Under the pieces are notes generated by a model. It had not been told where the DNA came from, did no database searches, and worked only from the letters and a program-made list of their open reading frames with translations. The position numbers and the translations under genes were made by a program. Positions 36,426 through 48,704 of a stretch of DNA of 64,000 nucleotides are shown here, in pieces. Positions within the stretch are counted from its first letter, which is position 1. Each line of letters begins with the position of its first letter. The stretch is from Vicinamibacteria bacterium (lineage in GTDB: Bacteria; Acidobacteriota; Vicinamibacteria; Marinacidobacterales; Marinacidobacteraceae): positions 1,824,001 to 1,888,000 of the forward strand of contig OY729431.1 of NCBI GenBank assembly GCA_963422395.1, given 5' to 3'.

Positions 36426-38075
36426 TCATCGTCCGGAGGACCCCGCTTCGGGCCGCCAGTGCGGCCACAGCACCTTTCCGGGCCGGGCGCCGGTGTGCTC
36501 ACCGTCTTCCAGCACGAAGACGCCGCCGACCAGCGCGTGGACGATTCCTTCGGCCAGCGCGTGCGGATCCTCGTAGGTCGCGGTATCGGTGAAGTTCGGG
36601 AGGTCCACCACCAGCAGGTCGGCCACCTTTCCCGGCGCGATCTGCCCCCGGTCGCGCATCCGAAAGACGCTCGCGGGCAGGCTGGTCATCCCGCGCACCG
36701 CTTCGGCCGCGGTCAGGACTCCGCGCTCCCGGACATAACGGGCGAGGCGCCGGGGAAAAGCGCCGTAGAAGCGGGGATGCGGCCGGCCTTCGCTCGCCGG
36801 CACCAAGCCGCCGTCGGAAGAGCCCATCGTCCATTCGCGGGTCATGATGTGGACGATGTCGCCCTCCGACATGTTGAAGGACACCAGCCCAGCTCCCCCG
36901 GAGTCGAGCAGCCGGAGCGCGGCGTCCACCGGCTCGATCCCCCATTCCGCCGCCAGTTCGGAAAGTCGAAGCCCTTCGAGCGAAGGGTCAGCGCGGTGGC
37001 GGGAGAGGAGCAGCGTCGGCGCGCCGCCGCGGCGTTCGAGCGCCTCCAGCATGTCGGCACGGAGGCGAGTCCGCTCCGCCGGATTCGCGAGCCGCCCCTC
37101 GAGCGGCGACGGCATCCCCGGCATCGTCTCCCCAGCGAGCGCCCAGCGGGGTACCAGGGCGCCGACGATGCTCGTGCCGGAGGCCTCGTACGGGTACTGG
37201 TCGGCGAACACCTCGATCCCCCGGGCGCGGGCCTCGCGGATGGCCTCGGCCGCTTCGCGGGAAAGCCCCCAGACTGGCGGCCCGAGGGCCTTGAAATGGG
37301 TCACCACCCCCCGAATCCCATGGGTCTCGGCAACCTCGACGACTTCCCCGACCGCCGCCACCAGGCCGATGCCGTAGTCGCTCTCGTCGCGGATGTGGCT
37401 CACGAAGGCGCCATGAGGGGTGATCTCGCCGGCGAGCTGCACCACTTCGTCGTTCGCGGCGTAGCTGCCGGGGGCGTAGTAGAGCCCCCCGGTCATGCCG
37501 AACGCGCCCGCCTCCATCCCGGCACGCACCAGAGCGGCCATCCGTCCGAGTTCCTCTTCGGTCGGCGGCCGGTCCTCCATGCCGAGCACTTCGCGGCGCA
37601 CCGCGCCGTGGCCGATCATCAGGGCCACATGGATGCCGATCCCGCCGTCTTCGAGCGCGCGGCGCTGTCCTTCGAGATCCACCGGACCGCCCCCGTCGGG
37701 ATTCACCATCGCGGTGGTGATCCCCTGCCGGATCAGCGGCAGACCGGCGTTCAATTCCGGATCGAGGAGGCCGGACGCCGCGTGGGAATGGGGATCGATG
37801 AAACCCGGCATCACCGTGAGCCCCCGGATGTCGAGCTCGCGGGTGCCGGCTGGAAGATCCGCTGCCGCGAGGATTCCGACCTGCCGGATGCGGCCTTCGG
37901 CGACGAGGACATCACCCCGATACCAGGGATTTCCGGTGCCGTCCAGGATCTGCCCGCCCCGAAGCACGATCCCCGGTGCCTCGGCGATCTCGGGCGCGGG
38001 GGCGTCCGGGCAGGCGGTTGCGAACGCCGCCCCGATCGCCGCCGCCGCCAGTATCCGTGTCCGCCCCGCGCTCAC
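36426..38075 (-). CDS. N-acyl-D-amino-acid deacylase (amidohydrolase), probable lipoprotein
   Basis: PGFIDPHSH, SHIRDE, HFK, DQYPY, SSDG and HPRFYG motifs; N-terminal FATAC. Confidence 0.9.
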   Translation of the reverse strand: MSAGRTRILAAAAIGAAFATACPDAPAPEIAEAPGIVLRGGQILDGTGNPWYRGDVLVAEGRIRQVGILAAADLPAGTRELDIRGLTVMPGFIDPHSHAASGLLDPELNAGLPLIRQGITTAMVNPDGGGPVDLEGQRRALEDGGIGIHVALMIGHGAVRREVLGMEDRPPTEEELGRMAALVRAGMEAGAFGMTGGLYYAPGSYAANDEVVQLAGEITPHGAFVSHIRDESDYGIGLVAAVGEVVEVAETHGIRGVVTHFKALGPPVWGLSREAAEAIREARARGIEVFADQYPYEASGTSIVGALVPRWALAGETMPGMPSPLEGRLANPAERTRLRADMLEALERRGGAPTLLLSRHRADPSLEGLRLSELAAEWGIEPVDAALRLLDSGGAGLVSFNMSEGDIVHIMTREWTMGSSDGGLVPASEGRPHPRFYGAFPRRLARYVRERGVLTAAEAVRGMTSLPASVFRMRDRGQIAPGKVADLLVVDLPNFTDTATYEDPHALAEGIVHALVGGVFVLEDGEHTGARPGKVLWPHWRPEAGSSGR

Positions 38076-38243
38076 CGCTCCATCGTAAGGGAAAACAGGC
38101 CGGGGCGCGCCGGGTCCCCGCCGCCGAACCGCCCCTTCCCCGGGCACCCGGCGTCCGCGATCGGCCGGGCGCAGCGCCGGGGATCGGTTTCGACTCCCGG
38201 GCGGCTCATATACTGATCCGCGAGACGGTAGAAGGAAGGGCGA

Positions 38244-38987
38244 TTGCGCACAGCGGCCATCATTCCGACCCGGAAGGGGGCGGCGGAAATCGAGAGGCTC
38301 CTGTCGGCGATTCCGGCGGGGCTGCTGAGCGAGGTGATCGTGGTGGCACGATCCGCCGCTGACGAGATTTCGGCAGTCGCCGGGAAGCAAGGCAGCGCCG
38401 TGGTGCTTCCGGAGCCCGGTGCGGGCTTCGGACGGGCCTGTCTCGCGGGGATCGCCCACCTCGCCGGGTCCCCGCCCGATGCGGTGGTGTTCTTCGGCGG
38501 CGAGAGCGTCTCGAATCCGGCGGAGCTCCCGGCGCTCTTCGCTCCGTTCGGCGCGCCGGGGGTGGATCTGGTGGTGGGATCGCGAGTGCGCGGGAGCGCC
38601 CGGCGGCGGAGCGCGGGTGTCGTGAACCGATTGGCCGCCGGCGTCATCCGACTCCGCACCGGCTACCGCTTCACCGACCTTTCCCCGATCTGCGCCATTC
38701 GCTGGGAGGCGCTGGCCCGCCTCGGGATGCGGGATCCCGACTACGGCTTTTCTGCCGAGCTGCTCTCGAAGGCCGCCCGCGCCCGCATTCCCGCAGCCGA
38801 GGTCCCGGTTTCCTCCCGCCGACCGGATCCGCCGCGAGAATCCGCCCCTTCGGCTCCGGCAGGTTCCTCGTTCGTCCGGGGGCTCAAGATCCTCCTCACC
38901 GTCCTGGCGCCGCCTCCCGGAATCCGGAGTGACGACAAGGAAGCAGGGGCCCCGGCCGCCGAGAACGGGGCTGCTATGGCCGTATGA
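38244..38987 (+). CDS. Glycosyltransferase family 2 homolog lacking catalytic acidic motifs
   Basis: IIP, EVIVV, G.GRACL.G, DLVVGSR, TDLSP and EVPV framework; DxD replaced by GGE. Confidence 0.75.
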   Translation: MRTAAIIPTRKGAAEIERLLSAIPAGLLSEVIVVARSAADEISAVAGKQGSAVVLPEPGAGFGRACLAGIAHLAGSPPDAVVFFGGESVSNPAELPALFAPFGAPGVDLVVGSRVRGSARRRSAGVVNRLAAGVIRLRTGYRFTDLSPICAIRWEALARLGMRDPDYGFSAELLSKAARARIPAAEVPVSSRRPDPPRESAPSAPAGSSFVRGLKILLTVLAPPPGIRSDDKEAGAPAAENGAAMAV

Positions 38988-39012
38988 CTTCGGAAACAGG
39001 CTGCTGACGGCC

Positions 39013-40428
39013 ATGCTGCGGCGCACCAAGATCATCGCCACCCTGGGTCCGGCAACGGCTTCGGCGCCCGCCGTCGAGGCGCTCGTGGAGGCCGGCATGG
39101 ATGTCGCGCGGTTCAACTGCGCCCATGAGACCGCATCGAGCCTCCAAAAGCGCATCCGCGTCATCCGCCGGGCTTCGAAGAAGTACGGGCGGGCGATCGC
39201 GACCATGGCCGATCTCGCCGGGCCCAAGATGCGCACCGGGGAAGTTCCCGAAGAAGGCGTCGAACTCACCGCGGGAGCGCGCTTCATCCTCACCACCCGG
39301 AAAGTCCCGGGCAGCGCCGAAGCGGTCTCGACCACCTACGCCCAGTTGCCCCGCGATGTCCGCCCCGGCGACTCGATCCTGCTCGACGACGGGCTGCTCC
39401 AGCTGCGAGTGGTCGAGGCGCGGAACCAGGATGTCGATACCGAGGTGGTGGTGGGCGGCCTGCTCCTCTCCCGGAAGGGACTCAACCTGCCGGGGGTGCC
39501 GCTCTCGGGCCCTTCGTTGACCGTCAAGGACCGCTCCGACCTGAAAGCCGCAGTCGCTGCGGGCGTGGATTACCTCGCAGTGTCCTTCGTGCAGCGCCCC
39601 CGCGACATCGAAACGGTGCGGGGCTTGCTGGCGAACCTCGACCGGGAAGATCTGCCGATCGTCGCCAAGATCGAACGGCCCGAGGCGCTCGAGAACCTCG
39701 AGCGGATCCTCGCGGTTTCGGACGGCGTGATGGTCGCCCGCGGCGACCTCGGCGTCGAAACTTCCTCGGAGCGGGTGCCGGTGATCCAGAAACGGGTGAT
39801 CCGGGAAGCGAACTCGCGGGGCAGGATCGCCATCACCGCGACTCAGATGCTGGATTCGATGATCTCCCACCCCTTCCCCACCCGGGCCGAGGCCTCCGAT
39901 GTGGCGAACGCCATCCTCGACGGCAGCGACGCGGTCATGCTCTCGGGAGAAACCTCGGTGGGGAAGTACGCGGCGGAGGCGGTCCGCACCCTCGACCGCC
40001 TCGCCGCCTACACCGAACAACACGCCGACTTCGGCGAACAGCCGCACTATCAGGCCCTGATCGACCGAAGCCGGGTGGAACACGCGGTAGCGGCGGCCGC
40101 TCGGGAAGCGGCGGCCACCGTGGAGGCCGTCTGCATCATCGCGTTCACCGACTCGGGGGCTACCGTCCGGCAAGTGAGCCGGTTGCGGCCGCCCTGCGGG
40201 ATCTTCGGCTTCACGACTTCCGAACGCGTCTATCGGCGGCTCGCCCTCCGCTGGGGCGTCCGGCCGATGCGGAACCGCCGGTTTCGCACCACCGACGCGA
40301 TGCTGAGGAGCGCCCTCGACGGGCTCCGCTCCGAGCGGTTCGTCGCCGCCGGTGACCGGGTGGTCCTCGTGTGCGGCACCACCCAGCTGAGCGGCGCCAC
40401 GAACATGATGAAGGTGGAGATCCTCTGA
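39013..40428 (+). CDS. pyk: Pyruvate kinase
   Basis: RRTKIIATLGP, KIE, MVARGDLGVE, ATQMLDSM, PTRAE and MLSGET motifs. Confidence 0.97.
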   Translation: MLRRTKIIATLGPATASAPAVEALVEAGMDVARFNCAHETASSLQKRIRVIRRASKKYGRAIATMADLAGPKMRTGEVPEEGVELTAGARFILTTRKVPGSAEAVSTTYAQLPRDVRPGDSILLDDGLLQLRVVEARNQDVDTEVVVGGLLLSRKGLNLPGVPLSGPSLTVKDRSDLKAAVAAGVDYLAVSFVQRPRDIETVRGLLANLDREDLPIVAKIERPEALENLERILAVSDGVMVARGDLGVETSSERVPVIQKRVIREANSRGRIAITATQMLDSMISHPFPTRAEASDVANAILDGSDAVMLSGETSVGKYAAEAVRTLDRLAAYTEQHADFGEQPHYQALIDRSRVEHAVAAAAREAAATVEAVCIIAFTDSGATVRQVSRLRPPCGIFGFTTSERVYRRLALRWGVRPMRNRRFRTTDAMLRSALDGLRSERFVAAGDRVVLVCGTTQLSGATNMMKVEIL

Positions 40429-40463: not shown

Positions 40464-42014
40464 TCAGGCGGGCACGAAGATGCCGTGGAAACCCAGCGGC
40501 AGGGGGTAGCGCAGCCGGCCCACCGCGAGCGGGCCCTCGCCGATGCGCTCGGCGTCGAAAACCGCGATCTGGGTGATCTCCCGGTCGAGGTCCAGCGCGG
40601 TGCCGAGAACCCAGCCGGCCTCCTGCGTCTCTCCTCCGGGGCGGGGCACGAAGATGTGCTCCTCGGGCAGGAAGCGGTCTCCGTAGAAGTGGGTTTCCGC
40701 TTCGCCGGTCGAAAGATCCCAGCGCGCCACCCGATCCAGCCGGCGAGGCAGAGTCCCGGAACGACGGGCCGGGGCGCTCGCCAGGCTATAGACATGGCGG
40801 TGCCGTTTGCCCACCGCGCCGGGATGCACTCGGGGAAACTCCGCCGCCCGCTCGAACAGCTGCTGCTCGACGAGGTCCCCCTCGCCGAGCGCGACCTGGG
40901 CGAGGCGGGTGGGTCCGGTCGGAGCCCGCAAGACGCCGCGCATGACCTCGCGGAAGGTCTCGGTCAGTTCGGTCGCGTCCGGTGCCACACAGTAGTCGAA
41001 CCGGATGGCATCTCCGTCTTCCCAGGCGTTGCCGAAATGGAAGGTGAAGCCCGCCGGCAACTGCCACCACCGCCGGTTCGCGAAGTCGTCCTTGCGCACC
41101 GCGAGTACGCGAGTGCCGAGCTCCGGCCGCCAGACCTGGGCGTCGAGCAAGCTGGCCTCGGGGGACAGCCTCTCGGGGTCGAATACCAGCGGCGGCAGGA
41201 CGAAGACCAGATGGTGGGCGGTAACGGCGAAGTCGTGGACCATGCCGAGCGGAGCGGCGGCGACCTTTCCAACCGCGGCCACCGCGCCCGCCGCATCGAT
41301 TCGGTAGAGCACCAGCAGGCCCCGGAGGAAGTCGTAGCCGAACGCCCAGAGCGTGCCGTCGGGCTCGACCTTCGGATGCGCGGTGAAGGGCGCGCCGATC
41401 AGGTCGTTCCGCCAAACCTTCGGACCCAGGGTTTCCAGGGACTCGGGATCGAGGCGATACGGTGAGCCGGCCTCCCACAGCGCCAGCAGTTCACCCGCAT
41501 GGTGCAGGAGGCTGATGTTCGCGGGGTTCATCGCATCCGGGCCGGTCAGCGGCCGGCCGTCGGCCAGGGGAGTACCGAATCCCGGCCACAGCATTCGTCC
41601 GGCGTCCTGTTCCGCCTGCCGCTTGGCGGTGGCGACGAACCGGCCCCGATGGCGAATCCGGCCGCCGCCCATGGTGAATGCCTGGACCATGCCGTCGCCG
41701 TCGAACCAGTGGTGGTACCGCCGGCCGCCGACCTCATGACCCGCCGGGCCGTTCCGGTAGAAGACGCCGGCGAGTTCTTCCGGCCAACGCCCTTCTACGG
41801 CCAGGTCCTCGTCCCCGAGACTCTCGGCCGCGATCCCCTGCCAGCCGAGCAGGGCGGGATTCGCGGCCCGGGCGGCGTCGAAGTCCTGTTTCCAGCGATC
41901 TCCTCGGGAGAGGCGCCGGGCTCCGGCAGGAAGCGCCCAAAGGGCGCCCGGCAATCCCATCGCACCGATCGCGGCAGCCGCGAGGAACTCTCTCCTCTGC
42001 TTCGGTGCGCTCAT
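40464..42014 (-). CDS. Carotenoid/stilbene cleavage oxygenase (RPE65 family) with twin-arginine signal
   Basis: QRREFL signal; RNGP and HWFDGDG; four His ligands in AHPK, VHDF, FHFGNA and GFHG. Confidence 0.9.
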   Translation of the reverse strand: MSAPKQRREFLAAAAIGAMGLPGALWALPAGARRLSRGDRWKQDFDAARAANPALLGWQGIAAESLGDEDLAVEGRWPEELAGVFYRNGPAGHEVGGRRYHHWFDGDGMVQAFTMGGGRIRHRGRFVATAKRQAEQDAGRMLWPGFGTPLADGRPLTGPDAMNPANISLLHHAGELLALWEAGSPYRLDPESLETLGPKVWRNDLIGAPFTAHPKVEPDGTLWAFGYDFLRGLLVLYRIDAAGAVAAVGKVAAAPLGMVHDFAVTAHHLVFVLPPLVFDPERLSPEASLLDAQVWRPELGTRVLAVRKDDFANRRWWQLPAGFTFHFGNAWEDGDAIRFDYCVAPDATELTETFREVMRGVLRAPTGPTRLAQVALGEGDLVEQQLFERAAEFPRVHPGAVGKRHRHVYSLASAPARRSGTLPRRLDRVARWDLSTGEAETHFYGDRFLPEEHIFVPRPGGETQEAGWVLGTALDLDREITQIAVFDAERIGEGPLAVGRLRYPLPLGFHGIFVPA

Positions 42015-42478
42015 CGTACCGATCCTCCCGAGCGATAGATCAGTTCGGCGTCGGTCGAGACCGTCTCGCCGGCGGCGGACACCTCGACCGCCGCCTGCTC
42101 GAAATCCGGCGGCCCGAACCGCCCATCGGCACTGCGGCTGAAGCCGAAGCCCTCGGTGGGGAAGTCGTGGAAGTCGGTGTCCAGCTCATCGTTGCCGTTC
42201 TCGTCGTGGAAGACCGCGACCGCGTAGCGGCCCGCCGGCAGGTCGGTGAAGACGAACCGGAGCACCCCGGGGGCGGCCCTCCTCCAATGCGCGGCCACCG
42301 CAGCCTCGGCATCGGGGAAGTCGTCCGCGCCGGCCTGGTGGTGGAGAGCCGCCATCACTCTCCCGGAATCGTGCGCGACCGAACGCACGGTGACCTCCAG
42401 GTCATCGCCGAATCCGGGCGGCGCTGCCGCCAAGATCGCCAGGGCGGCGGAAAAGAACGATGTCGTGATCTTTGGCAT
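42011..42478 (-). CDS. DUF2141 family secreted protein
   Basis: Signal peptide; GRYAVAVFHDENGN.LD...P.EG.GFS...FGPP.F motif. Confidence 0.88.
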   Translation of the reverse strand: MPKITTSFFSAALAILAAAPPGFGDDLEVTVRSVAHDSGRVMAALHHQAGADDFPDAEAAVAAHWRRAAPGVLRFVFTDLPAGRYAVAVFHDENGNDELDTDFHDFPTEGFGFSRSADGRFGPPDFEQAAVEVSAAGETVSTDAELIYRSGGSVR

Positions 42479-42530
42479 CAGGGATCTCCTTCGGAGGTTT
42501 GCGAAGAGATTGGAGAGAGGATCGCGGCGG

Positions 42531-43733
42531 TCAGCGCGGAAAAGAGAAGCCGATATCCACCGAGAACAGCACGAGCGTCGGATCTATCGTCGAACTCCAG
42601 GTGGTTTCCACGAGGGTCTTCGGATCCGAAACGAGGGTGCCCAAGTCGAAAAGGATCGTCATGTCCGTGGTGAGGGGCGGGCCCCAGACGACATCCACCC
42701 GGGGGCGAATCAGGAACCGGCCCCTGCGGAACCCGAGACTCAGGGAGCCGGTATGCACGAGATGGCTCCGATCGGCTTCGAACACGAACTCCGCCACCGT
42801 GATCGGGGCCCCCTGGGCCGCCAGCTCCGCCTCCAGGTCGGAGATCAGGGCGCCCGACTGCAGATCGTCGGTCAGGTCGTCGGTGGCCCGAATCCATCCC
42901 GTGCCGAAGCCGATTGCGAGCTCGACGGCCCCGTCCCGGAAGCGAAAGGTGCGCAGCGCCGAGGCCAGCACGAGGTCGGCGCGGGAAGAAACCGAGCTCT
43001 GAACCGCCCCCATCGATACCCCGAGAGAGGCGGTTTCCGGGGAATCCTGGAGGAGCTCCGACGGGGTGAGATCGGGACTTCGGAGCACGAAGTAGCTGCC
43101 CTCGAAGCCCCAATTCCCATAGAGCAGCCGTGTCCCCGCGCCCCCGCCGAACTCCCGGCTCCAGCGGGAATCCGAGACGGAATCCGTGTCCAGCTCGGAA
43201 CCGGCTCGCGCGCTGATGGAGTCGGTGGCGGACACCTGGAGCAGGGACAGTCCGCCGCGCCCGAAGACTTCAGCGCGGAAGCGGGGCGGCGGGATCATCT
43301 TGGCAGCGGTCGAGATCGTCTCGCCGCCGGTCGGTATCTCGACGGCCGCCTGCTCGAAATCCGGGGGGCCGAACAGGCCCTTCGCGCTGCGGCTGAAACC
43401 GTAGCCCTCGATCGGAACACCGAAAAAGTTGGTGTCCAGCACCCCGTTGCCGTTCTCGTCGTGGAAGACCGCGACCGCGTAGCGGCCCGCCGGCAGGTCG
43501 GGAAAGAGGAAGCGGAGCACTCCGGGAGCGGCCTTCATCCACTGCGCGGCCACCGCACCCTCGGCATCGGGGAATTGCTCCGCACCGGCCTCGCGATGGA
43601 GGGCCGCCATGACCCTTCCGGAATCGTGCGCGGCCAAACGCACGGTGACCTCCAGGTCATCGCCGAATCCGGGATGCGCTGCCGCCAAGACCGCCAGGGC
43701 GGCGGAAAAGAACGATGTCGTGATCTTTGGCAT
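42531..43733 (-). CDS. DUF2141 domain fused to a predicted outer-membrane beta-barrel
   Basis: N-terminal ~142 aa paralogous to 42011-42478; C-terminal ~255 aa with amphipathic strands ending VLFSVDIGFSF-PR. Confidence 0.75.
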   Translation of the reverse strand: MPKITTSFFSAALAVLAAAHPGFGDDLEVTVRLAAHDSGRVMAALHREAGAEQFPDAEGAVAAQWMKAAPGVLRFLFPDLPAGRYAVAVFHDENGNGVLDTNFFGVPIEGYGFSRSAKGLFGPPDFEQAAVEIPTGGETISTAAKMIPPPRFRAEVFGRGGLSLLQVSATDSISARAGSELDTDSVSDSRWSREFGGGAGTRLLYGNWGFEGSYFVLRSPDLTPSELLQDSPETASLGVSMGAVQSSVSSRADLVLASALRTFRFRDGAVELAIGFGTGWIRATDDLTDDLQSGALISDLEAELAAQGAPITVAEFVFEADRSHLVHTGSLSLGFRRGRFLIRPRVDVVWGPPLTTDMTILFDLGTLVSDPKTLVETTWSSTIDPTLVLFSVDIGFSFPR

Positions 43734-43745
43734 CAGGCCATCTCC

Positions 43746-44408
43746 TCATTCGAGGGTTCGCGCAAGAGTTCGCGCAAGAAATCGAGAAGGTCGGGTGGTT
43801 TGCGAAGCGGCCGGAGGGAGACCCGCTGCCCCACAAGCCCGGCCCGGCCGATCGGCATCCTTCGCGGCGAGAGCGCGCAGCTCCTCGAGCGCGCGGTCGC
43901 ACCAGCCGAGCTGCGCCTCGGCCTGATCGAGCCCGTAAAGCAGCGTCATCCGCCAGAAGGGCATTCGTGGATCGGGGCCCGGCCGCCGCGCGAGATCGGC
44001 GGCGATCTCCCGGTAGCGAGCGAGTGCGGCGGCGGCGCGGGCCCGCGCCGACTCGACATGGGCCAAACAGACCGGCAGCGGAACTTCATCCCCGAAGAAC
44101 AGCTTGAGCAGGAGCTCGTTCCGGGGCGGCCGGTCGGCCACCGGCGCCGAAAGCCAGGCGCGCAGCGCCGCACGGCCCCGAGCCGTGATTCCATAGACAT
44201 GGCGAATCCGCCGCCCGGTGCGGTCGTCCTCCTGCCTGGTGACCCAGCCTTCCTCGGCGAGCGCCTTCAGCATCGGATAGATCTGGCTGTACCCCTCCGA
44301 CCAGAAGTTCCCGACACTCCGGGCGACCACCTGTTTGAGGTCGTAGCCGGACATCGGGCGCCAGGTCAGAAACCCCAGCAGGGCGAAGGCGGTTCGGTTT
44401 TCAATCAT
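43746..44408 (-). CDS. PadR-family transcriptional regulator with C-terminal extension
   Basis: LLGFL..PMSGYDL, FWSE..SQIYP.L, YGIT..GR..L..WL and ELLLKLFF motifs. Confidence 0.92.
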   Translation of the reverse strand: MIENRTAFALLGFLTWRPMSGYDLKQVVARSVGNFWSEGYSQIYPMLKALAEEGWVTRQEDDRTGRRIRHVYGITARGRAALRAWLSAPVADRPPRNELLLKLFFGDEVPLPVCLAHVESARARAAAALARYREIAADLARRPGPDPRMPFWRMTLLYGLDQAEAQLGWCDRALEELRALAAKDADRPGRACGAAGLPPAASQTTRPSRFLARTLARTLE

Positions 44409-44431
44409 GAGTATCTCTTCGATAGGTAGGG

Positions 44432-44460
44432 ATTATATATCTTTTCAATATATATGTCAA
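44432..44460 (-). promoter_or_regulatory. Consensus sigma70 promoter of padR, overlapped by a putative operator
   Basis: Minus strand TTGACA (44460-44455), 17 nt, TATAAT (44437-44432); related boxes TATC-N5-RATA at 44412-44424 and 44438-44450. Confidence 0.8.
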
Positions 44461-44491
44461 CTACATTGAGAGGGCTCTAGACTCCGCGCCG

Positions 44492-46420
44492 ATGATCGCC
44501 GTCCTGGAGGACGCCGTGCGGAAGGCCGCCGCCGCCCTCGGGGCGCCGGACTTCCCGGTGGCCTCGGAGGTTCCCCCCTCGCCGGAACAGGGAGATGTGG
44601 CGTTCCCGGCGGCTTTCGGGCTGGCGAGAACCCTCCGCCGCCCGCCCCGGGCCATCGCGGAAGGGCTGGCCGAGTCGCTTCGGGAGCGCCCCGAAGTCCA
44701 GCGGATCGTCCAGCGGGTGGAAGTGGCGGGGCCCGGGTATGTCAACCTGTTCCTGCGGCGGGCGCAGTGGCTCGCCCAGCCGGACCCCGGGGTGGATCCG
44801 GAAGCGCCGGAAGGGGTCCACATCGTCGAGCACACCTGCATCAACCCGAACAAGGCCGCGCACCTCGGCCACTTGCGGAACGCAGCACTCGGGGACTCCT
44901 TCGCCCGCATCCTCCGGTTCCTCGGGCGGCGGGTCGAAGTGCAGAACTACATCGACGACACCGGCGTACAGGTCGCGGATGTCGCCCTCGGCTTCTATCG
45001 CCTCCGGGGAGAAGACGCCGATGCAGTGCGCCGCCTCGCGCGCCGCCCGCGCTTCGACTTCCTCTGCTGGGACCTCTACCGCGAGGTGTCGCGCCGCATC
45101 GATGCCGATCCCGCCTTCGCCGCCGCCCGCCGGGAGGCCCTCCACGGGCTGGAACACGGCGAGGCTCCCTGGTCGGAGATCGGGGCGGTCGTCGCCGAAG
45201 CCATCGCCCGCCGCCACCTCGAAACGATGGAACGGATCGGCGTCCGCTACGACTTGCTGCCCTGCGAGAAGACGATCCTGCGCCTCCACTTCTGGGATCG
45301 CGCTTTCGAACTGCTGCGGGCGAAGGGAGCCATCCGCCGGAGCCGCTCCGGCAAGAACCGGGACTGCTGGGTGATGGACACCGATCTCGCCCAGGACGGG
45401 GAGAAGGTCATCGTCCGCTCGAACGGGACTGTGACCTATGTGGGGAAGGACATCGCCTACCAGATGTGGCAGCTCGGCCTGCTGGACCGGGAATTCCGCT
45501 ACCGGCGCTTTCACGACTACGCCGACGGTTCGGCGGCCTGGATCACCACCGACGGCCGCGGCGATCCCGCCGCCCCGCGCTTCGGCGCCGGCGCGCTGGT
45601 CCACCATGTGATCGACGCCCGGCAGTCCTATCCGCAGCAGGTGGTCCAGGAGGCGGTCGCGCGGCTGAGCTCGGAGTCGGAACGCTCCCGGACCCGGCAC
45701 TTCGCCTACGAGATGGTCGCTCTCACTCCGGCGACATTCGCGGCGATGGGGTCGCCCGGGAGCGGGGGCGGGAGCGGGGGCGCAGTGGAGATGTCCGGCC
45801 GGAAGGGAGTGGGGATCAAGGCCGACGACCTCCTCGACACACTCGTAGCCCGAGCGCAGGCCGAAGTCTCGTCGCGGAACCCCGATCTCGGAGCCGCAGT
45901 GCCGGAGGCGCTCGCCCGCGACATCGCGGTGGGCGCCCTTCGCTACTTGATGGTGCAGGTGACGAAGAACCAGCGGATCGTCTTCGATATCGAGGAAGCG
46001 CTGAGCTTCGACGGCGCCACCGGCCCCTATCTCCAATACGCAGCGGTGCGCGCCCGGAACATCCTGACCCGGCTCGACCTCCCGGCGTCGAAGCACCGCA
46101 GAGGTCCGCCCGAAGAGTTCGACGAACGGCTGGCCCGGCTCGATCCGACGGAGGCCCGAGATCTCTGGATCCTGGTCCGGGAGGCTTCTGGACTCCACGC
46201 CGCCGCCGCCCGCGCCCGGGACGAAGAGGACCCACAAGTGCTGGCGCGCTGGGCCTATGAGGGAGCACAACGCTTCCACGGCTTCTACCACCGCTACCGG
46301 GTAGCGGGAGAAACCGACGAGAACGCCCGAAGCCTGCGCGCCTACGCCATCGAAGTCTTTTTCACCCAGCACGCCAAGGGGCTGGAGCTTCTGGGGATTC
46401 CGATTCCGGAGCGGATGTGA
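44492..46420 (+). CDS. argS: Arginine--tRNA ligase
   Basis: EHTCINPNKAAHLGH (HIGH), MSGR and GPYLQYA motifs. Confidence 0.95.
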   Translation: MIAVLEDAVRKAAAALGAPDFPVASEVPPSPEQGDVAFPAAFGLARTLRRPPRAIAEGLAESLRERPEVQRIVQRVEVAGPGYVNLFLRRAQWLAQPDPGVDPEAPEGVHIVEHTCINPNKAAHLGHLRNAALGDSFARILRFLGRRVEVQNYIDDTGVQVADVALGFYRLRGEDADAVRRLARRPRFDFLCWDLYREVSRRIDADPAFAAARREALHGLEHGEAPWSEIGAVVAEAIARRHLETMERIGVRYDLLPCEKTILRLHFWDRAFELLRAKGAIRRSRSGKNRDCWVMDTDLAQDGEKVIVRSNGTVTYVGKDIAYQMWQLGLLDREFRYRRFHDYADGSAAWITTDGRGDPAAPRFGAGALVHHVIDARQSYPQQVVQEAVARLSSESERSRTRHFAYEMVALTPATFAAMGSPGSGGGSGGAVEMSGRKGVGIKADDLLDTLVARAQAEVSSRNPDLGAAVPEALARDIAVGALRYLMVQVTKNQRIVFDIEEALSFDGATGPYLQYAAVRARNILTRLDLPASKHRRGPPEEFDERLARLDPTEARDLWILVREASGLHAAAARARDEEDPQVLARWAYEGAQRFHGFYHRYRVAGETDENARSLRAYAIEVFFTQHAKGLELLGIPIPERM

Positions 46421-47076
46421 ATCCGCCCGCCAACGCCGTGCGGCATCTCGAGCGACGGGGGCGCGGGGTGGCCTGGCGGCTCGTGAGGACGGCGGCCATC
46501 TCGCTCGCCGCCGGCTGGTTGCTGCTTTCCTACGGCGCCCAGATCTTCCGGATCGAAGGCGCGAGCATGGCCCCCGCGCTTCGTTCCGGAGAACGAGTCC
46601 TGGTGGACAAGGTCGGCGTCCGGCTCGGCGGAGTCCGGCGGGGAGATGTGGTCGTCTTCCGCTCTCCGGCGGATTCCGGAACGGTCCTGGTGAAACGGAT
46701 CGCCGCGCTGCCGGGAGACACCGTGCACTTCCTCGACGACGAGGTGTCGGTGACCCCGAACTCCGCCCCCGCACCCGACGCCCGGAACGAGCAGGAGGCG
46801 ACTTTCCTGCGGGCGCTTTCACCGCTGGTGAAGGCCGCCGCCGACGAGCCGCCTGCCGGCTCTCGGCCGCCACCCGACGCAATCCACCACCGGCAGCCTC
46901 CCGCTCCGGGCGCAGTGGGGATGCGGGTGAGCCCCGGGCGCCTCTTCGTCCTCGGGGACAACCGCAGCCAGAGCAGCGACAGCCGTCACTGGGGGCTGCT
47001 ACCCGAGGACGCGGTCCTCGGCAGAGCCATCCTGCGCGTCTTTCCGCTGCAGCGGATGGGACGGGTTCCCCGGTGA
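46417..47076 (+). CDS. lepB: Signal peptidase I
   Basis: GASMAP (Ser), RGDVVVF, VKR (Lys) and GDNR..S.DSR motifs. Confidence 0.92.
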   Translation: MNPPANAVRHLERRGRGVAWRLVRTAAISLAAGWLLLSYGAQIFRIEGASMAPALRSGERVLVDKVGVRLGGVRRGDVVVFRSPADSGTVLVKRIAALPGDTVHFLDDEVSVTPNSAPAPDARNEQEATFLRALSPLVKAAADEPPAGSRPPPDAIHHRQPPAPGAVGMRVSPGRLFVLGDNRSQSSDSRHWGLLPEDAVLGRAILRVFPLQRMGRVPR

Positions 47077-48704
47077 GCGCCGCTCCCGCTCCTCCGGCCT
47101 CCCGGCCCACATCGCCCGGGGCCGAAGCGGCCGGCGCCGAAGACCGCGGTTTCCTACGGACCCTGCCGATCTCCCCGGGATCGTTCTTCGCCGGCTGGGC
47201 GCGAGAGCCCGGCCGTTTCTCCGACCTCCTCCCCAACCCCTTCGCCGCCGGGGCGCTCGGCGCCGCCGCGGATCGCCCGCCGCACCCGGAAGGCCGGCGC
47301 CGCGCTGCCGCCGCCGCACTCACCGCGACGAACCGGGCCTGGGGCGCCTGCCCGCGCGCACTCGGCGCCGCCGCGAGCCTGGCCGATTCCGCCACGCTCG
47401 CGGTGGTCACCGGACAACAGCCCGGACTCTTCGGAGGCCCCCTCTATTCGCTGGTCAAGGCCCTGTCCACAGTCGCCGCCGCCCGCCGCCTCGAGGCGGT
47501 TTCCGGCCGCCCCGCGGCGGCGGTGTTCTGGATCGAAGGCGACGACCACGATTTCGAGGAGATCCGGAACGCCTGGCTGCTCGACCGCGCCGGCACCCCC
47601 CGCTGCCTGCGCTACCGGCCGGGGGAGGAAAGCCCTGGACTGCCGGCGTTCCGCCGGATCCTCGACGGGTCCGTGGGGGAGCTCCTGGCGGAGCTGAAAG
47701 CGCTCCTGCCAGCGACGGAGTTTCGCAGCGAGGCGCTTCTCGCACTCTCGGACGCCTACGCCCCCGGACGGCCGCTGAGCGAGGCCTTCGGGCGGCTGAT
47801 GCTGCAGCTGACCCGCGGCACCGGGTTGATCGTCATGGATCCCACCGTGCCCGAGCTGAAGCGCCTGGCATCTCCGGTGTACGAGACTGCGATGCTGCGA
47901 GAAACCGAAGGCCGCCGCCGGATCGGGGAAACGACGCGCCGGATCGAGGCCGCCGGGTACCGGGGGCAGGCTGCCGCCGAGGGGTACGGCGTCTTTCGGA
48001 CCGGGGCGAACGGGGTGCGCCTGCGGCTCGCCGCCGGGGAGACGCTGCCCCCCGAAGCCGAGTCGTGGAGCGCGGCGGTCCTCCTCCGGCCGCTGGTGCA
48101 GGATTTTCTGCTGCCGACCGCCGCCTATGTGGGCGGTCCCTCCGAAATCGCCTACCACGCCCAGCTCGGGGGCCTCTACGAACTCCACGGGATCCCCCGG
48201 CCGTTCGTGATCCCGCGGCATCAGATCTCGGTGCTGAGTGCATCCCAGCTACGGGTGCTCGACGAGGACGGCATCGGGTTCGACGAACTCTCGGCCGGGG
48301 ACGAGGCGGCGCTGAACCGCAAGGCGGCCGATCCAGCGGCGCGGCAGGCGATTTCCGGCGCACAGGAGGCGGTGACGACCCATCTCCGGGAAGTGGAAGG
48401 GGCCGTCGGCGCACTCGACGGCAGCCTGACCGCCGCCTCTCGCCGCGCCCTCGGGAAGATGCTTCAGATCCTGGGAGATCTGGACGCCAAGGCCGTCCGC
48501 GCTGCCAAACGGCGCGACGAAGAACGGCGCCAGCGATTCCTGCGCGCCCGGAATGCGCTCTTCCCCGCCGGGACCCCGCAGGAGCGCCGGCTCGGCCCCA
48601 TCGTCTTCTGGAACCGTTATGGACCCGGCTTCGCCGGTTGGCTGCTCGACGCCCTCGAACACCCGGACTCCGACCGCCGAGCCCGGAATCTGCTGCTGCG
48701 CTGA
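47073..48704 (+). CDS. bshC: Bacillithiol biosynthesis cysteine-adding enzyme BshC
   Basis: VVTGQQPGLFGGPLY..K, FW...DHDFEEI, LRPLVQD.LLP, GGPSEIAY.AQ and QER motifs. Confidence 0.92.
   Translation: MSAAPAPPASRPTSPGAEAAGAEDRGFLRTLPISPGSFFAGWAREPGRFSDLLPNPFAAGALGAAADRPPHPEGRRRAAAAALTATNRAWGACPRALGAAASLADSATLAVVTGQQPGLFGGPLYSLVKALSTVAAARRLEAVSGRPAAAVFWIEGDDHDFEEIRNAWLLDRAGTPRCLRYRPGEESPGLPAFRRILDGSVGELLAELKALLPATEFRSEALLALSDAYAPGRPLSEAFGRLMLQLTRGTGLIVMDPTVPELKRLASPVYETAMLRETEGRRRIGETTRRIEAAGYRGQAAAEGYGVFRTGANGVRLRLAAGETLPPEAESWSAAVLLRPLVQDFLLPTAAYVGGPSEIAYHAQLGGLYELHGIPRPFVIPRHQISVLSASQLRVLDEDGIGFDELSAGDEAALNRKAADPAARQAISGAQEAVTTHLREVEGAVGALDGSLTAASRRALGKMLQILGDLDAKAVRAAKRRDEERRQRFLRARNALFPAGTPQERRLGPIVFWNRYGPGFAGWLLDALEHPDSDRRARNLLLR

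Follow-up and report, generated by a model that had tools for sequence, protein, structure and literature searches.

Oxygenases of the carotenoid-cleavage family are usually regarded as cytoplasmic or plastid enzymes. Here we describe an operon of a Vicinamibacteria bacterium (assembly GCA_963422395.1, contig OY729431.1), located within a 64,000-nt stretch of DNA that is hereafter referred to as the window. The operon specifies a member of this family with a predicted twin-arginine translocation (Tat) signal, two proteins with a DUF2141 domain, one of which continues into a confidently modelled outer-membrane beta-barrel, and a PadR-type regulator. Our reading, to which we assign a probability of about 0.5, is that this is a foreign envelope operon in which a Tat-exported, ACO-like oxygenase and DUF2141 would act on an incoming polyene under the control of PadR. 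The oxygenase and DUF2141 constitute a predicted periplasmic core of two proteins that is found widely in Proteobacteria.

In a microbial review (PMC5133782), the RPE65/carotenoid cleavage oxygenase family is defined by four Fe-binding histidines and three second-shell glutamates, and the review does not contain the words periplasm, signal peptide, secreted or Tat. Likewise, the accessible part of PMC6700365 mentions no signal peptide for the characterised bacterial enzymes CsO2, HsCCO and RbCCO. Our literature search, whose coverage excluded most subscription journals, retrieved no paper on exported members of the RPE65 family or on their pairing with DUF2141. The closest solved structure to the oxygenase of the window is that of Synechocystis ACO (PDB 2BIW; 186 bits, 9e-54, residues 73-513), while LsdA scores 154 bits. 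ACO belongs to the same Pfam family, and its four histidines and second-shell glutamates align with those of our oxygenase. However, the identity between the two enzymes is low, the equivalog models for apocarotenoid and stilbene cleavage score far below their cut-offs, and the alignment starts at ACO residue 38 with nothing that matches the twin-arginine leader. We know of no DUF2141 partner of ACO. LsdA, LSD4 and NOV1 are of the same fold family, and Phe-59 of the lignostilbene dioxygenases (LSDs) is kept as F104, but their Tyr-101 and Lys-134 are absent from the oxygenase.

For DUF2141 itself, we found three contexts in print: in Sphingomonadales, a DUF2141 gene adjoins crtG, which encodes a carotenoid hydroxylase (PMC5989583, PMC9241875), DUF2141 is the last domain of Bacteroides LptZ (bioRxiv 10.64898/2026.10.02.756314), and the domain is listed in one ecogenomic survey. 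As far as the description in the two crtG papers goes, that pair resembles the present one in joining a DUF2141 gene to the gene of a carotenoid-modifying enzyme, but the partner is a membrane hydroxylase of carotenoid biosynthesis and not an exported cleavage enzyme. Fusions of DUF2141 to MipA/OmpV barrels, which are known from database entries and on which we found no paper, have the same order of signal peptide, DUF2141 and outer-membrane barrel as the fusion protein of the window. They differ from it in their barrel family (PF06629), in having no oxygenase near the four fused loci inspected, and in their independent origin. Lastly, the predicted fold of the C-terminal 250 residues of our fusion protein is that of the OmpA N-domain, NspA, OmpW and OprG. 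Unlike these 8-stranded barrels, it belongs to a tiny, lineage-restricted family without a significant sequence-family match and bears a DUF2141 domain at its N-terminus; the fold alone fits a channel or an anchor.

Gene organization

Coordinates are given as positions of the window. All four genes of the operon are encoded by the minus strand.

44432-44460, minus strand: sigma-70-type promoter TTGACA-17-TATAAT (12/12 match)
44437-44451, minus strand: putative PadR operator, palindrome ATATY-N5-GATAT, in the spacer of the promoter with an overlap into the -10 hexamer
43746-44408, minus strand: padR, 220 aa (Pfam PF03551, 3e-15; Vir_act_alpha_C PF10400, 5.4e-20)
42531-43733, minus strand: DUF2141-barrel fusion gene, 400 aa (Pfam DUF2141, 1.7e-29, at residues 29-137)
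43293-43733, minus strand: upstream DUF2141 duplicate, the N-terminal part of the fusion and a tandem repeat of the stand-alone DUF2141 gene
42534-43283, minus strand: barrel-coding part of the fusion (residues ~151-400), from a native, unannotated family of outer-membrane proteins
42011-42478, minus strand: stand-alone DUF2141 gene, 155 aa (Pfam DUF2141, 8.4e-30), with a Sec-type signal peptide
40464-42014, minus strand: RPE65-family oxygenase gene, 516 aa (Pfam PF03055, 5.1e-109)
41919-42014, minus strand: predicted twin-arginine signal of the oxygenase (residues 1-32, QRREFL motif)

Both the arrangement of four co-oriented, tightly spaced genes between pyk and argS and the perfect sigma-70 promoter ahead of them had been proposed in a first-pass annotation of this DNA, and both were found. 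In gene order, padR and the fusion gene are separated by 12 nt, the fusion gene and the stand-alone DUF2141 gene by 52 nt, and the stop codon of the latter overlaps the start of the oxygenase gene by 4 nt. The 12/12 promoter match at 44460-44432 is the sole such site between 40200 and 44700, where shuffled sequences contained a mean of 0.2. A single site resembling an intrinsic terminator lies inside the DUF2141 coding sequence; it was discounted, since shuffling produced more such sites (mean of 2.5).

The oxygenase and DUF2141 form a conserved pair

The membership of the oxygenase in its family is clear from a PF03055 match of 365.9 bits (cut-off of 27) that covers profile positions 13-469 of 469. 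In the alignment with Synechocystis ACO, its H213, H260, H326 and H510 pair with histidines taken as the Fe ligands of ACO, in line with the early observation that all four are present. Across 75 rows of the clade to which the oxygenase belongs, these residues and E181, E392 and E451/452 either do not vary or reach a conservation of at least 90%.

At the N-terminus of the oxygenase, the motif QRREFL precedes a hydrophobic segment, after which comes AGA. This twin-arginine signal had been noted before, and it proved to be a property of the clade. Among the related loci, which are the best 80 of 530 oxygenase relatives with one genome per species scanned, a regular expression recovered the RR signal in 75 oxygenases; of the other five, three show RR after a non-Met start (L020, L061, L063), L065 is truncated and L073 is unclear. 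TatC is encoded in the host genome (231.8 bits). Judged by these features, the oxygenase is predicted to be a Tat-exported enzyme. Outside the clade, two alphaproteobacterial RPE65 genes (L137 and L153) carry twin-arginine-like leaders and have no DUF2141 neighbour; export has possibly arisen more than once among RPE65-type enzymes.

A survey of gene neighbourhoods revealed that in 78 of the 80 related loci the oxygenase gene is immediately preceded by a co-oriented DUF2141 open reading frame (ORF); the two loci without it (L011, L065) are cut off by the end of their contig. Between the stop codon of DUF2141 and the start codon of the oxygenase lies a median of 11 nt; this spacing is at most 20 nt in 64 of 74 measurable loci, and in 8 the two genes overlap. 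The partners of the oxygenase are short, consist of a single DUF2141 domain and have AxA signals of the Sec type. A lipobox expression matched 2 of the 80, and by their sequences the partners are not lipoproteins. As an independent control we used 121 alphaproteobacterial genomes, 24 of which have RPE65 genes (46 matches), and examined 30 loci. All nine members of the clade in this sample have an upstream DUF2141 gene, and all nine match the clade profile from its start (from position 1 in eight and from position 9 in L142). By contrast, a co-oriented DUF2141 gene was found beside 0 of the 21 other RPE65 genes, one of which (L134) has a divergent one. The LSD-like proteins of this sample also differ from the clade in having neither a signal nor a DUF2141 neighbour. 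DUF2141 and the oxygenase are, in summary, a tightly conserved pair and probably translationally coupled. This linkage does not extend to the four-gene module as a whole: PadR is present in 6 and the barrel fusion in 0 of the 80 loci.

Two further observations concern these loci. In two loci of Massilia, a second, unfused DUF2141 ORF lies 0.9-1.4 kb upstream of the usual one (L048:5483-5893 and L050:4936-5364). The window is therefore not the only place where DUF2141 has been duplicated next to the oxygenase. A DUF2141-oxygenase-kinase module is also carried by a 3.7-kb contig (L016, 3663 nt) labelled as a Klebsiella pneumoniae metagenome-assembled genome (MAG). In the tree this contig adjoins the Pseudomonadales MAG L010 with short branches (0.07-0.08), and it is probably mis-binned.

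The DUF2141 (PF09912) matches of the window score 102.4 bits in the fusion and 103.4 bits in the stand-alone protein (cut-off of 24.4). At the N-terminus of each protein, a few polar residues lead into a hydrophobic stretch, which we judged by eye to be the signal peptide noted in the first-pass annotation. Among 76 aligned partners, an Asp, a Pro and a Glu are invariant; they sit in an acidic loop rich in Asp, Asn and Gly and are kept in both copies of the window. The stand-alone protein was modelled from 76 sequences with a predicted local distance difference test (pLDDT) score of 93.1, and the model is a plain beta-sandwich.

Horizontal acquisition of the operon

The distribution of the oxygenase indicates that the operon is foreign to its host lineage. 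The relatives considered were 24 genomes from the family of the host and 16 from its order; one genome in these counts (G033) is flagged as unpublished, and none of our conclusions rests on it. In none of these 40 genomes was an RPE65 gene found, so that the window's own is the only one among 41 genomes. The host genome (2.9 Mb, a single contig, 93.8% complete) contains no other DUF2141 or RPE65 gene outside the operon. The oxygenase shares 71-73% identity with its counterpart in the alphaproteobacterial locus L005, whereas the ArgS identity with L005 is 32% over half the length. In two Acidobacteriota-labelled genomes the oxygenase is 65-68% identical, and ArgS 45-51%.

This view is supported by the phylogenies. 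The oxygenase tree was computed from 75 of 81 sequences, rows without a long DUF2141 match having been left out. It groups the window with L005, L004 and L007 at 100/100; all of these are linked to PadR and nested among alphaproteobacterial rows. The DUF2141 tree contains the same five-row clade (98/94), within which the two copies of the window are sisters (100/96). Taken together, the sequences make a solid case for horizontal acquisition of the module across phyla.

The genes that flank the operon are encoded by the opposite strand.

38929-40428, plus strand: pyk (pyruvate kinase domain by Pfam)
44492-46420, plus strand: argS (ArgRS domain by Pfam)

In 15 genomes of the same family, pyk was never located within 1.5 kb upstream of argS. 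In 11 of these 15, the stretch that precedes argS has its match in the host genome at a distance of about 320 kb (window 44409-44491 compared with G000 around 1.543-1.546 Mb). The operon is thus an island at a synteny break, which suggests a rearrangement with its breakpoint at the island. A search for tRNA genes near the island found none between 30000 and 55000 of the window, and there was no Rfam match at gathering thresholds between 38000 and 47000. Further away, a BshC-like gene (bacillithiol synthesis) is located at 47073-48704, downstream of argS and a signal peptidase I gene. On the other side, a 969-aa ORF at 36426-39335 is a read-through artefact of the high G+C content: its family match is limited to a C-terminal amidohydrolase within 36426-38090, and a glycosyltransferase gene on the opposite strand (38244-38987) overlaps its upstream part.

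DUF2141 was duplicated and fused to an outer-membrane barrel

The fusion protein consists of a signal peptide, DUF2141 (residues 29-137), a Pro-rich linker of seven residues and the barrel (residues ~151-400). Its first 147 codons repeat the stand-alone DUF2141 gene as a tandem duplicate. The duplication is visible as a direct repeat of 300 nt that is 83% identical between copies 1255 nt apart. The alignment of the duplicates, with a mean column identity of 86%, takes in the ribosome-binding region and breaks off precisely where the DUF2141 domain ends. At the protein level the two copies are 78% identical, with a synonymous divergence (dS) of 0.28 and a ratio of non-synonymous to synonymous divergence (dN/dS) of 0.43.

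The C-terminal 250 residues have no Pfam match even at an E-value of 10, and an exhaustive search of 1.84 billion representatives yielded 36 relatives, nearly all of which are 250-394 aa long with the domain at the C-terminal end. When 29 of these were scanned, none exceeded a Pfam cut-off and three had sub-threshold OMP_b-brl matches. Homologues are present in 21 of the 24 genomes of the same family, where they are always separate genes with a start of their own, frequently arranged in tandem, and are never joined to DUF2141; the host genome's own paralogue is 31% identical. An AlphaFold2 model based on 35 sequences has a pLDDT of 92.9 and a predicted template modelling score (pTM) of 0.85. 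Foldseek ranked OmpW and OprG first (1.6e-7 and 2.6e-7). In the VIA structure search, the highest Z-scores were obtained with an OmpA model (19.0, 158 residues aligned), NspA (18.7) and OmpW (18.5, 172-173 residues), followed by OprF-N (16.6) and OprG (16.4, 182 residues), with root-mean-square deviations of 2.5-3.8 over 130-182 residues. An ESM Atlas search returned unnamed or generic beta-barrel clusters only. The domain is thus confidently modelled as an 8-stranded outer-membrane beta-barrel, with Z-scores of 16-19 to such barrels, as had been anticipated from the sequence. The extra residues (250 in number) and the quoted beta-signal-like strand are present, but the protein ends in Pro-Arg. 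The fold shows no preference for OmpW/AlkL-type channels, the Z-scores of which tie with those of OmpA- and NspA-type anchors, so that import through the barrel would be conjectural.

In 8-stranded barrels, as established for OmpA, OmpX and OmpW, both termini are held in the periplasm. The DUF2141 domain of the fusion should therefore hang beneath the outer membrane on its linker, if the modelled topology applies.

The fusion was found in none of the 80 related loci and none of the 40 relatives of the host, and among the matches listed for longer relatives of the 155-aa DUF2141 protein it was the only fusion. Nevertheless, its junction is not an artefact of assembly, because it is bridged by short-read contigs of 1022 nt, from two runs of one study, that span 42453-43474 without differences. 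Contigs from two further studies reach 43312-43315; the runs with the best matches may derive from the source sample. In the run X5 contig (depth of about 7), one base is missing at 43764, in the last codons of padR, which may be a strain variant or an assembly error.

An association of DUF2141 with barrels is also known from another family. In 113 of 114 relatives of protein P0003, DUF2141 is combined with a MipA/OmpV barrel, with DUF2141 first, and the named sources are Lentisphaerae, Kiritimatiellia or Verrucomicrobiota. Together with the fusion of the window, this indicates at least two independent fusions of DUF2141 to outer-membrane barrels. The second match of this fusion search, P0002 (257 aa), consists of two DUF2141 domains in tandem.

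Regulators and the putative operator

The regulators of the pair vary and are interchangeable. PadR heads six of the 80 related loci (L004, L005, L007, L009, L060 and L071). A LytS-type histidine kinase is found in 44 and a LytTR response regulator in 43 loci, 3' of the oxygenase and on the same strand, as counted by clustering and Pfam scans of two representatives of each.

The regulator of the window has the PadR family domain, and the PadR-headed loci share a palindrome that overlaps the promoter as a putative operator. This palindrome, ATATY-N5-GATAT, lies beside a TTGAC-like hexamer upstream of padR in the window and in five of the six PadR loci; the sixth (L071) has a variant with a different spacing. 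It matches once in the window, compared with no match in 100 shuffled sequences, and once in the whole 2.9-Mb genome. Since the palindrome is single in the genome and common to the PadR loci, PadR may autoregulate its own expression and repress this operon alone.

The likely substrate

The best NCBIfam match of the oxygenase is to a lignostilbene dioxygenase model (NF053778), at 203.3 bits far below the cut-off of 800, and the model for 8'-apo-carotenoid 13,14-cleaving dioxygenases (NF052295) is likewise below threshold (174.9 bits against 675). Residues at the active site are more informative. According to PMC8191317, Tyr-101 and Lys-134 are key catalytic residues of LSD that hydrogen-bond the 4-hydroxyl of the substrate. 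We mapped these residues onto the oxygenase through an alignment of the LSD-like protein L128 to 6OJW and a MAFFT alignment. The column of Tyr-101 holds G145, which adjoins F146 in a segment without any Tyr, and that of Lys-134 holds Trp180, with W in 29 of 30 clade rows. ACO carries Phe and Trp at these positions, like the oxygenase. Because both hydroxyl-binding residues are missing and ACO has the same Phe and Trp, a phenolic stilbene, which had been named as a possible substrate, is improbable, and a polyene of the (apo)carotenoid kind is the more probable choice.

The source of such a polyene was approached through the carotenoid genes. No CrtI above its cut-off was found in the host genome. 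Among the 121 alphaproteobacterial genomes, with 11 candidates scored in each, CrtI was present in 11, and none of the nine module holders was among these. The single gene of the SQS/PSY family in the host genome is ambiguous, scoring 262 bits with HpnD and 217 bits with CrtB, and two CrtO-like genes both fall far below their cut-off. The substrate is probably not a home-made C40 carotenoid and most likely an exogenous polyene.

A CrtO-like/phytoene-desaturase-family pair of adjacent genes is located at G000:C1:259533-262701 (L123), where a third matching stretch has an in-frame TAG, and the CrtO-like genes adjoin an Nramp transporter gene and a beta-propeller gene. With a possible link to retinal in mind, rhodopsin was searched for as well; no match was found in the host genome, but the control genomes were equally silent.

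Proposed mechanism and rival explanations

The findings on the ACO-like oxygenase, its DUF2141 neighbour, the varying regulators, the transfer between phyla and the duplication with barrel fusion are solid, whereas actual export, repression by PadR, the class of substrate and the role of DUF2141 are inferred. A sequence of events compatible with these findings can be outlined. PadR, bound to the palindrome inside the strong promoter, would keep the operon switched off until a hydrophobic ligand releases it. The oxygenase would fold and take up iron in the cytoplasm before its export via Tat, and in the periplasm it would cleave C=C bonds of a non-phenolic polyene, such as a carotenoid, an apocarotenoid or a similar lipid, with an origin most likely external to the cell. 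On the periplasmic side of the outer membrane, DUF2141 would assist the oxygenase, either by presenting the substrate or by docking the enzyme there. After acquisition of the operon, DUF2141 would have been duplicated, one copy replacing the signal peptide and linker of an 8-stranded outer-membrane protein of the lineage itself, and the resulting fusion would tether its DUF2141 domain under the outer membrane. The further idea that DUF2141 is a periplasmic handler of polyenes at the inner face of the outer membrane, with the fusions as Rosetta-stone evidence for a trans-envelope route, we put forward tentatively and with some doubt.

Several observations weigh against this mechanism. The fold of DUF2141 is a generic beta-sandwich: Foldseek found no match in the PDB at an E-value of 0.001 or lower, and the best Z-score in the VIA search was 8.0, with a secretin pilotin, which is at noise level and was followed by FN3, CnaB and transthyretin-like domains with Z-scores of 6-7. 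Contact of DUF2141 with the oxygenase or with any lipid, and with it the carrier or adaptor role, would be conjectural. Furthermore, 32 metagenome loci that hold DUF2141 genes of other kinds (4 MipA fusions and 28 others) all lack an RPE65 gene, and their gene neighbours are heterogeneous. DUF2141 in general is therefore not a dedicated oxygenase partner but appears to be a general periplasmic domain, one subfamily of which is committed to the exported oxygenase. The barrel ends in Pro-Arg, while the beta-signal usually ends in an aromatic residue, and its fold agrees equally with barrels of the anchor type (OmpA, NspA) and of the channel type (OmpW, OprG). Lastly, the genomes scored for CrtI, at 11 candidates each, are possibly incomplete, and with the ambiguous HpnD/CrtB-like synthase and the two weak CrtO-like genes an endogenous polyene remains conceivable.

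A rival explanation gives DUF2141 a different role, namely that of a maturation or stability factor of the exported oxygenase that might protect or reload its ferrous centre under the oxidising conditions of the periplasm, or of a structural subunit, instead of a carrier or adaptor. No hydrophobic cavity or lipid-binding fold was identified for DUF2141 in the structure searches, its invariant Asp, Glu and Pro and the acidic loop could bind metal, and the strict pairing with short or overlapping gaps would suit a stoichiometric partner. We nevertheless consider this explanation unlikely, as two independent fusions to barrels suggest that DUF2141 has its task at the outer membrane and not on a soluble enzyme, other DUF2141 genes occur without any oxygenase, and the RPE65 genes of L137 and L153 have Tat-like signals without DUF2141. 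According to a second rival explanation, the module remodels or senses an envelope polyene of the cell itself (a carotenoid or an aryl-polyene-like pigment), the aldehyde product serving as a signal. The LytS-type kinase and LytTR regulator genes that follow the oxygenase in over half of the related loci, the crtG-adjoining DUF2141 gene reported for pigmented Sphingomonadales, and the SQS/PSY-family and CrtO-like genes would all agree with such a function. Yet none of the module holders is among the CrtI holders, the host has no CrtI above its cut-off, and its relatives manage without the module, which hence is not core envelope biology of the lineage; this makes the explanation rather improbable.

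The fusion might also be a neutral by-product of duplication and rearrangement, the working unit being padR, DUF2141 and the oxygenase. This would account for its occurrence in no other genome examined, for the closest loci holding just these three genes, and for the synteny break at the island. It is, however, hard to reconcile with an intact frame of 400 codons in which the family-conserved residues of both parts are all kept, with the dN/dS of 0.43 at a dS of 0.28 and the retained ribosome-binding region, with a junction that is unchanged in contigs of several runs, and with the independent evolution of the same domain order in the MipA fusions. We therefore regard neutrality as very unlikely. 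Least of all do we expect the oxygenase to be a periplasmic dioxygenase of the lignostilbene or isoeugenol type that acts on lignin-derived phenolics sensed by PadR. Such an activity might be read from the far sub-threshold NCBIfam match (203 against 800 bits) and from the response to phenolic acids that PadR regulators show in other systems. The replacement of Tyr-101 and Lys-134 by a Tyr-free segment and Trp180, and the higher score of ACO than of LsdA (186 against 154 bits), speak against it.

Implications

The preferred reading, that of an acquired operon for the cleavage of incoming polyenes in the envelope, draws attention to a large uncharacterised clade of RPE65-family members, predicted to be exported, that extends across Alpha-, Beta- and Gammaproteobacteria, and whose cultured holders of the module include Massilia, Undibacterium and Duganella. 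DUF2141, a widespread domain of unknown function, is now tied by gene pairing to an enzyme of known chemistry, and owing to this tight pairing its function becomes directly testable. If DUF2141 is a polyene handler, it would hand polyenes that are incoming or borne by the outer membrane to the Tat-exported oxygenase in Proteobacteria, and a relative in Sphingomonadales would serve the CrtG pathway. The trans-envelope route implied by the two independent barrel fusions would then be one by which Gram-negative bacteria take up hydrophobic polyenes and cut them outside the cytoplasm. The window itself shows a foreign envelope module in the course of being fitted to a new host, with the duplicated domain of a partner protein fused onto a host-specific outer-membrane protein.

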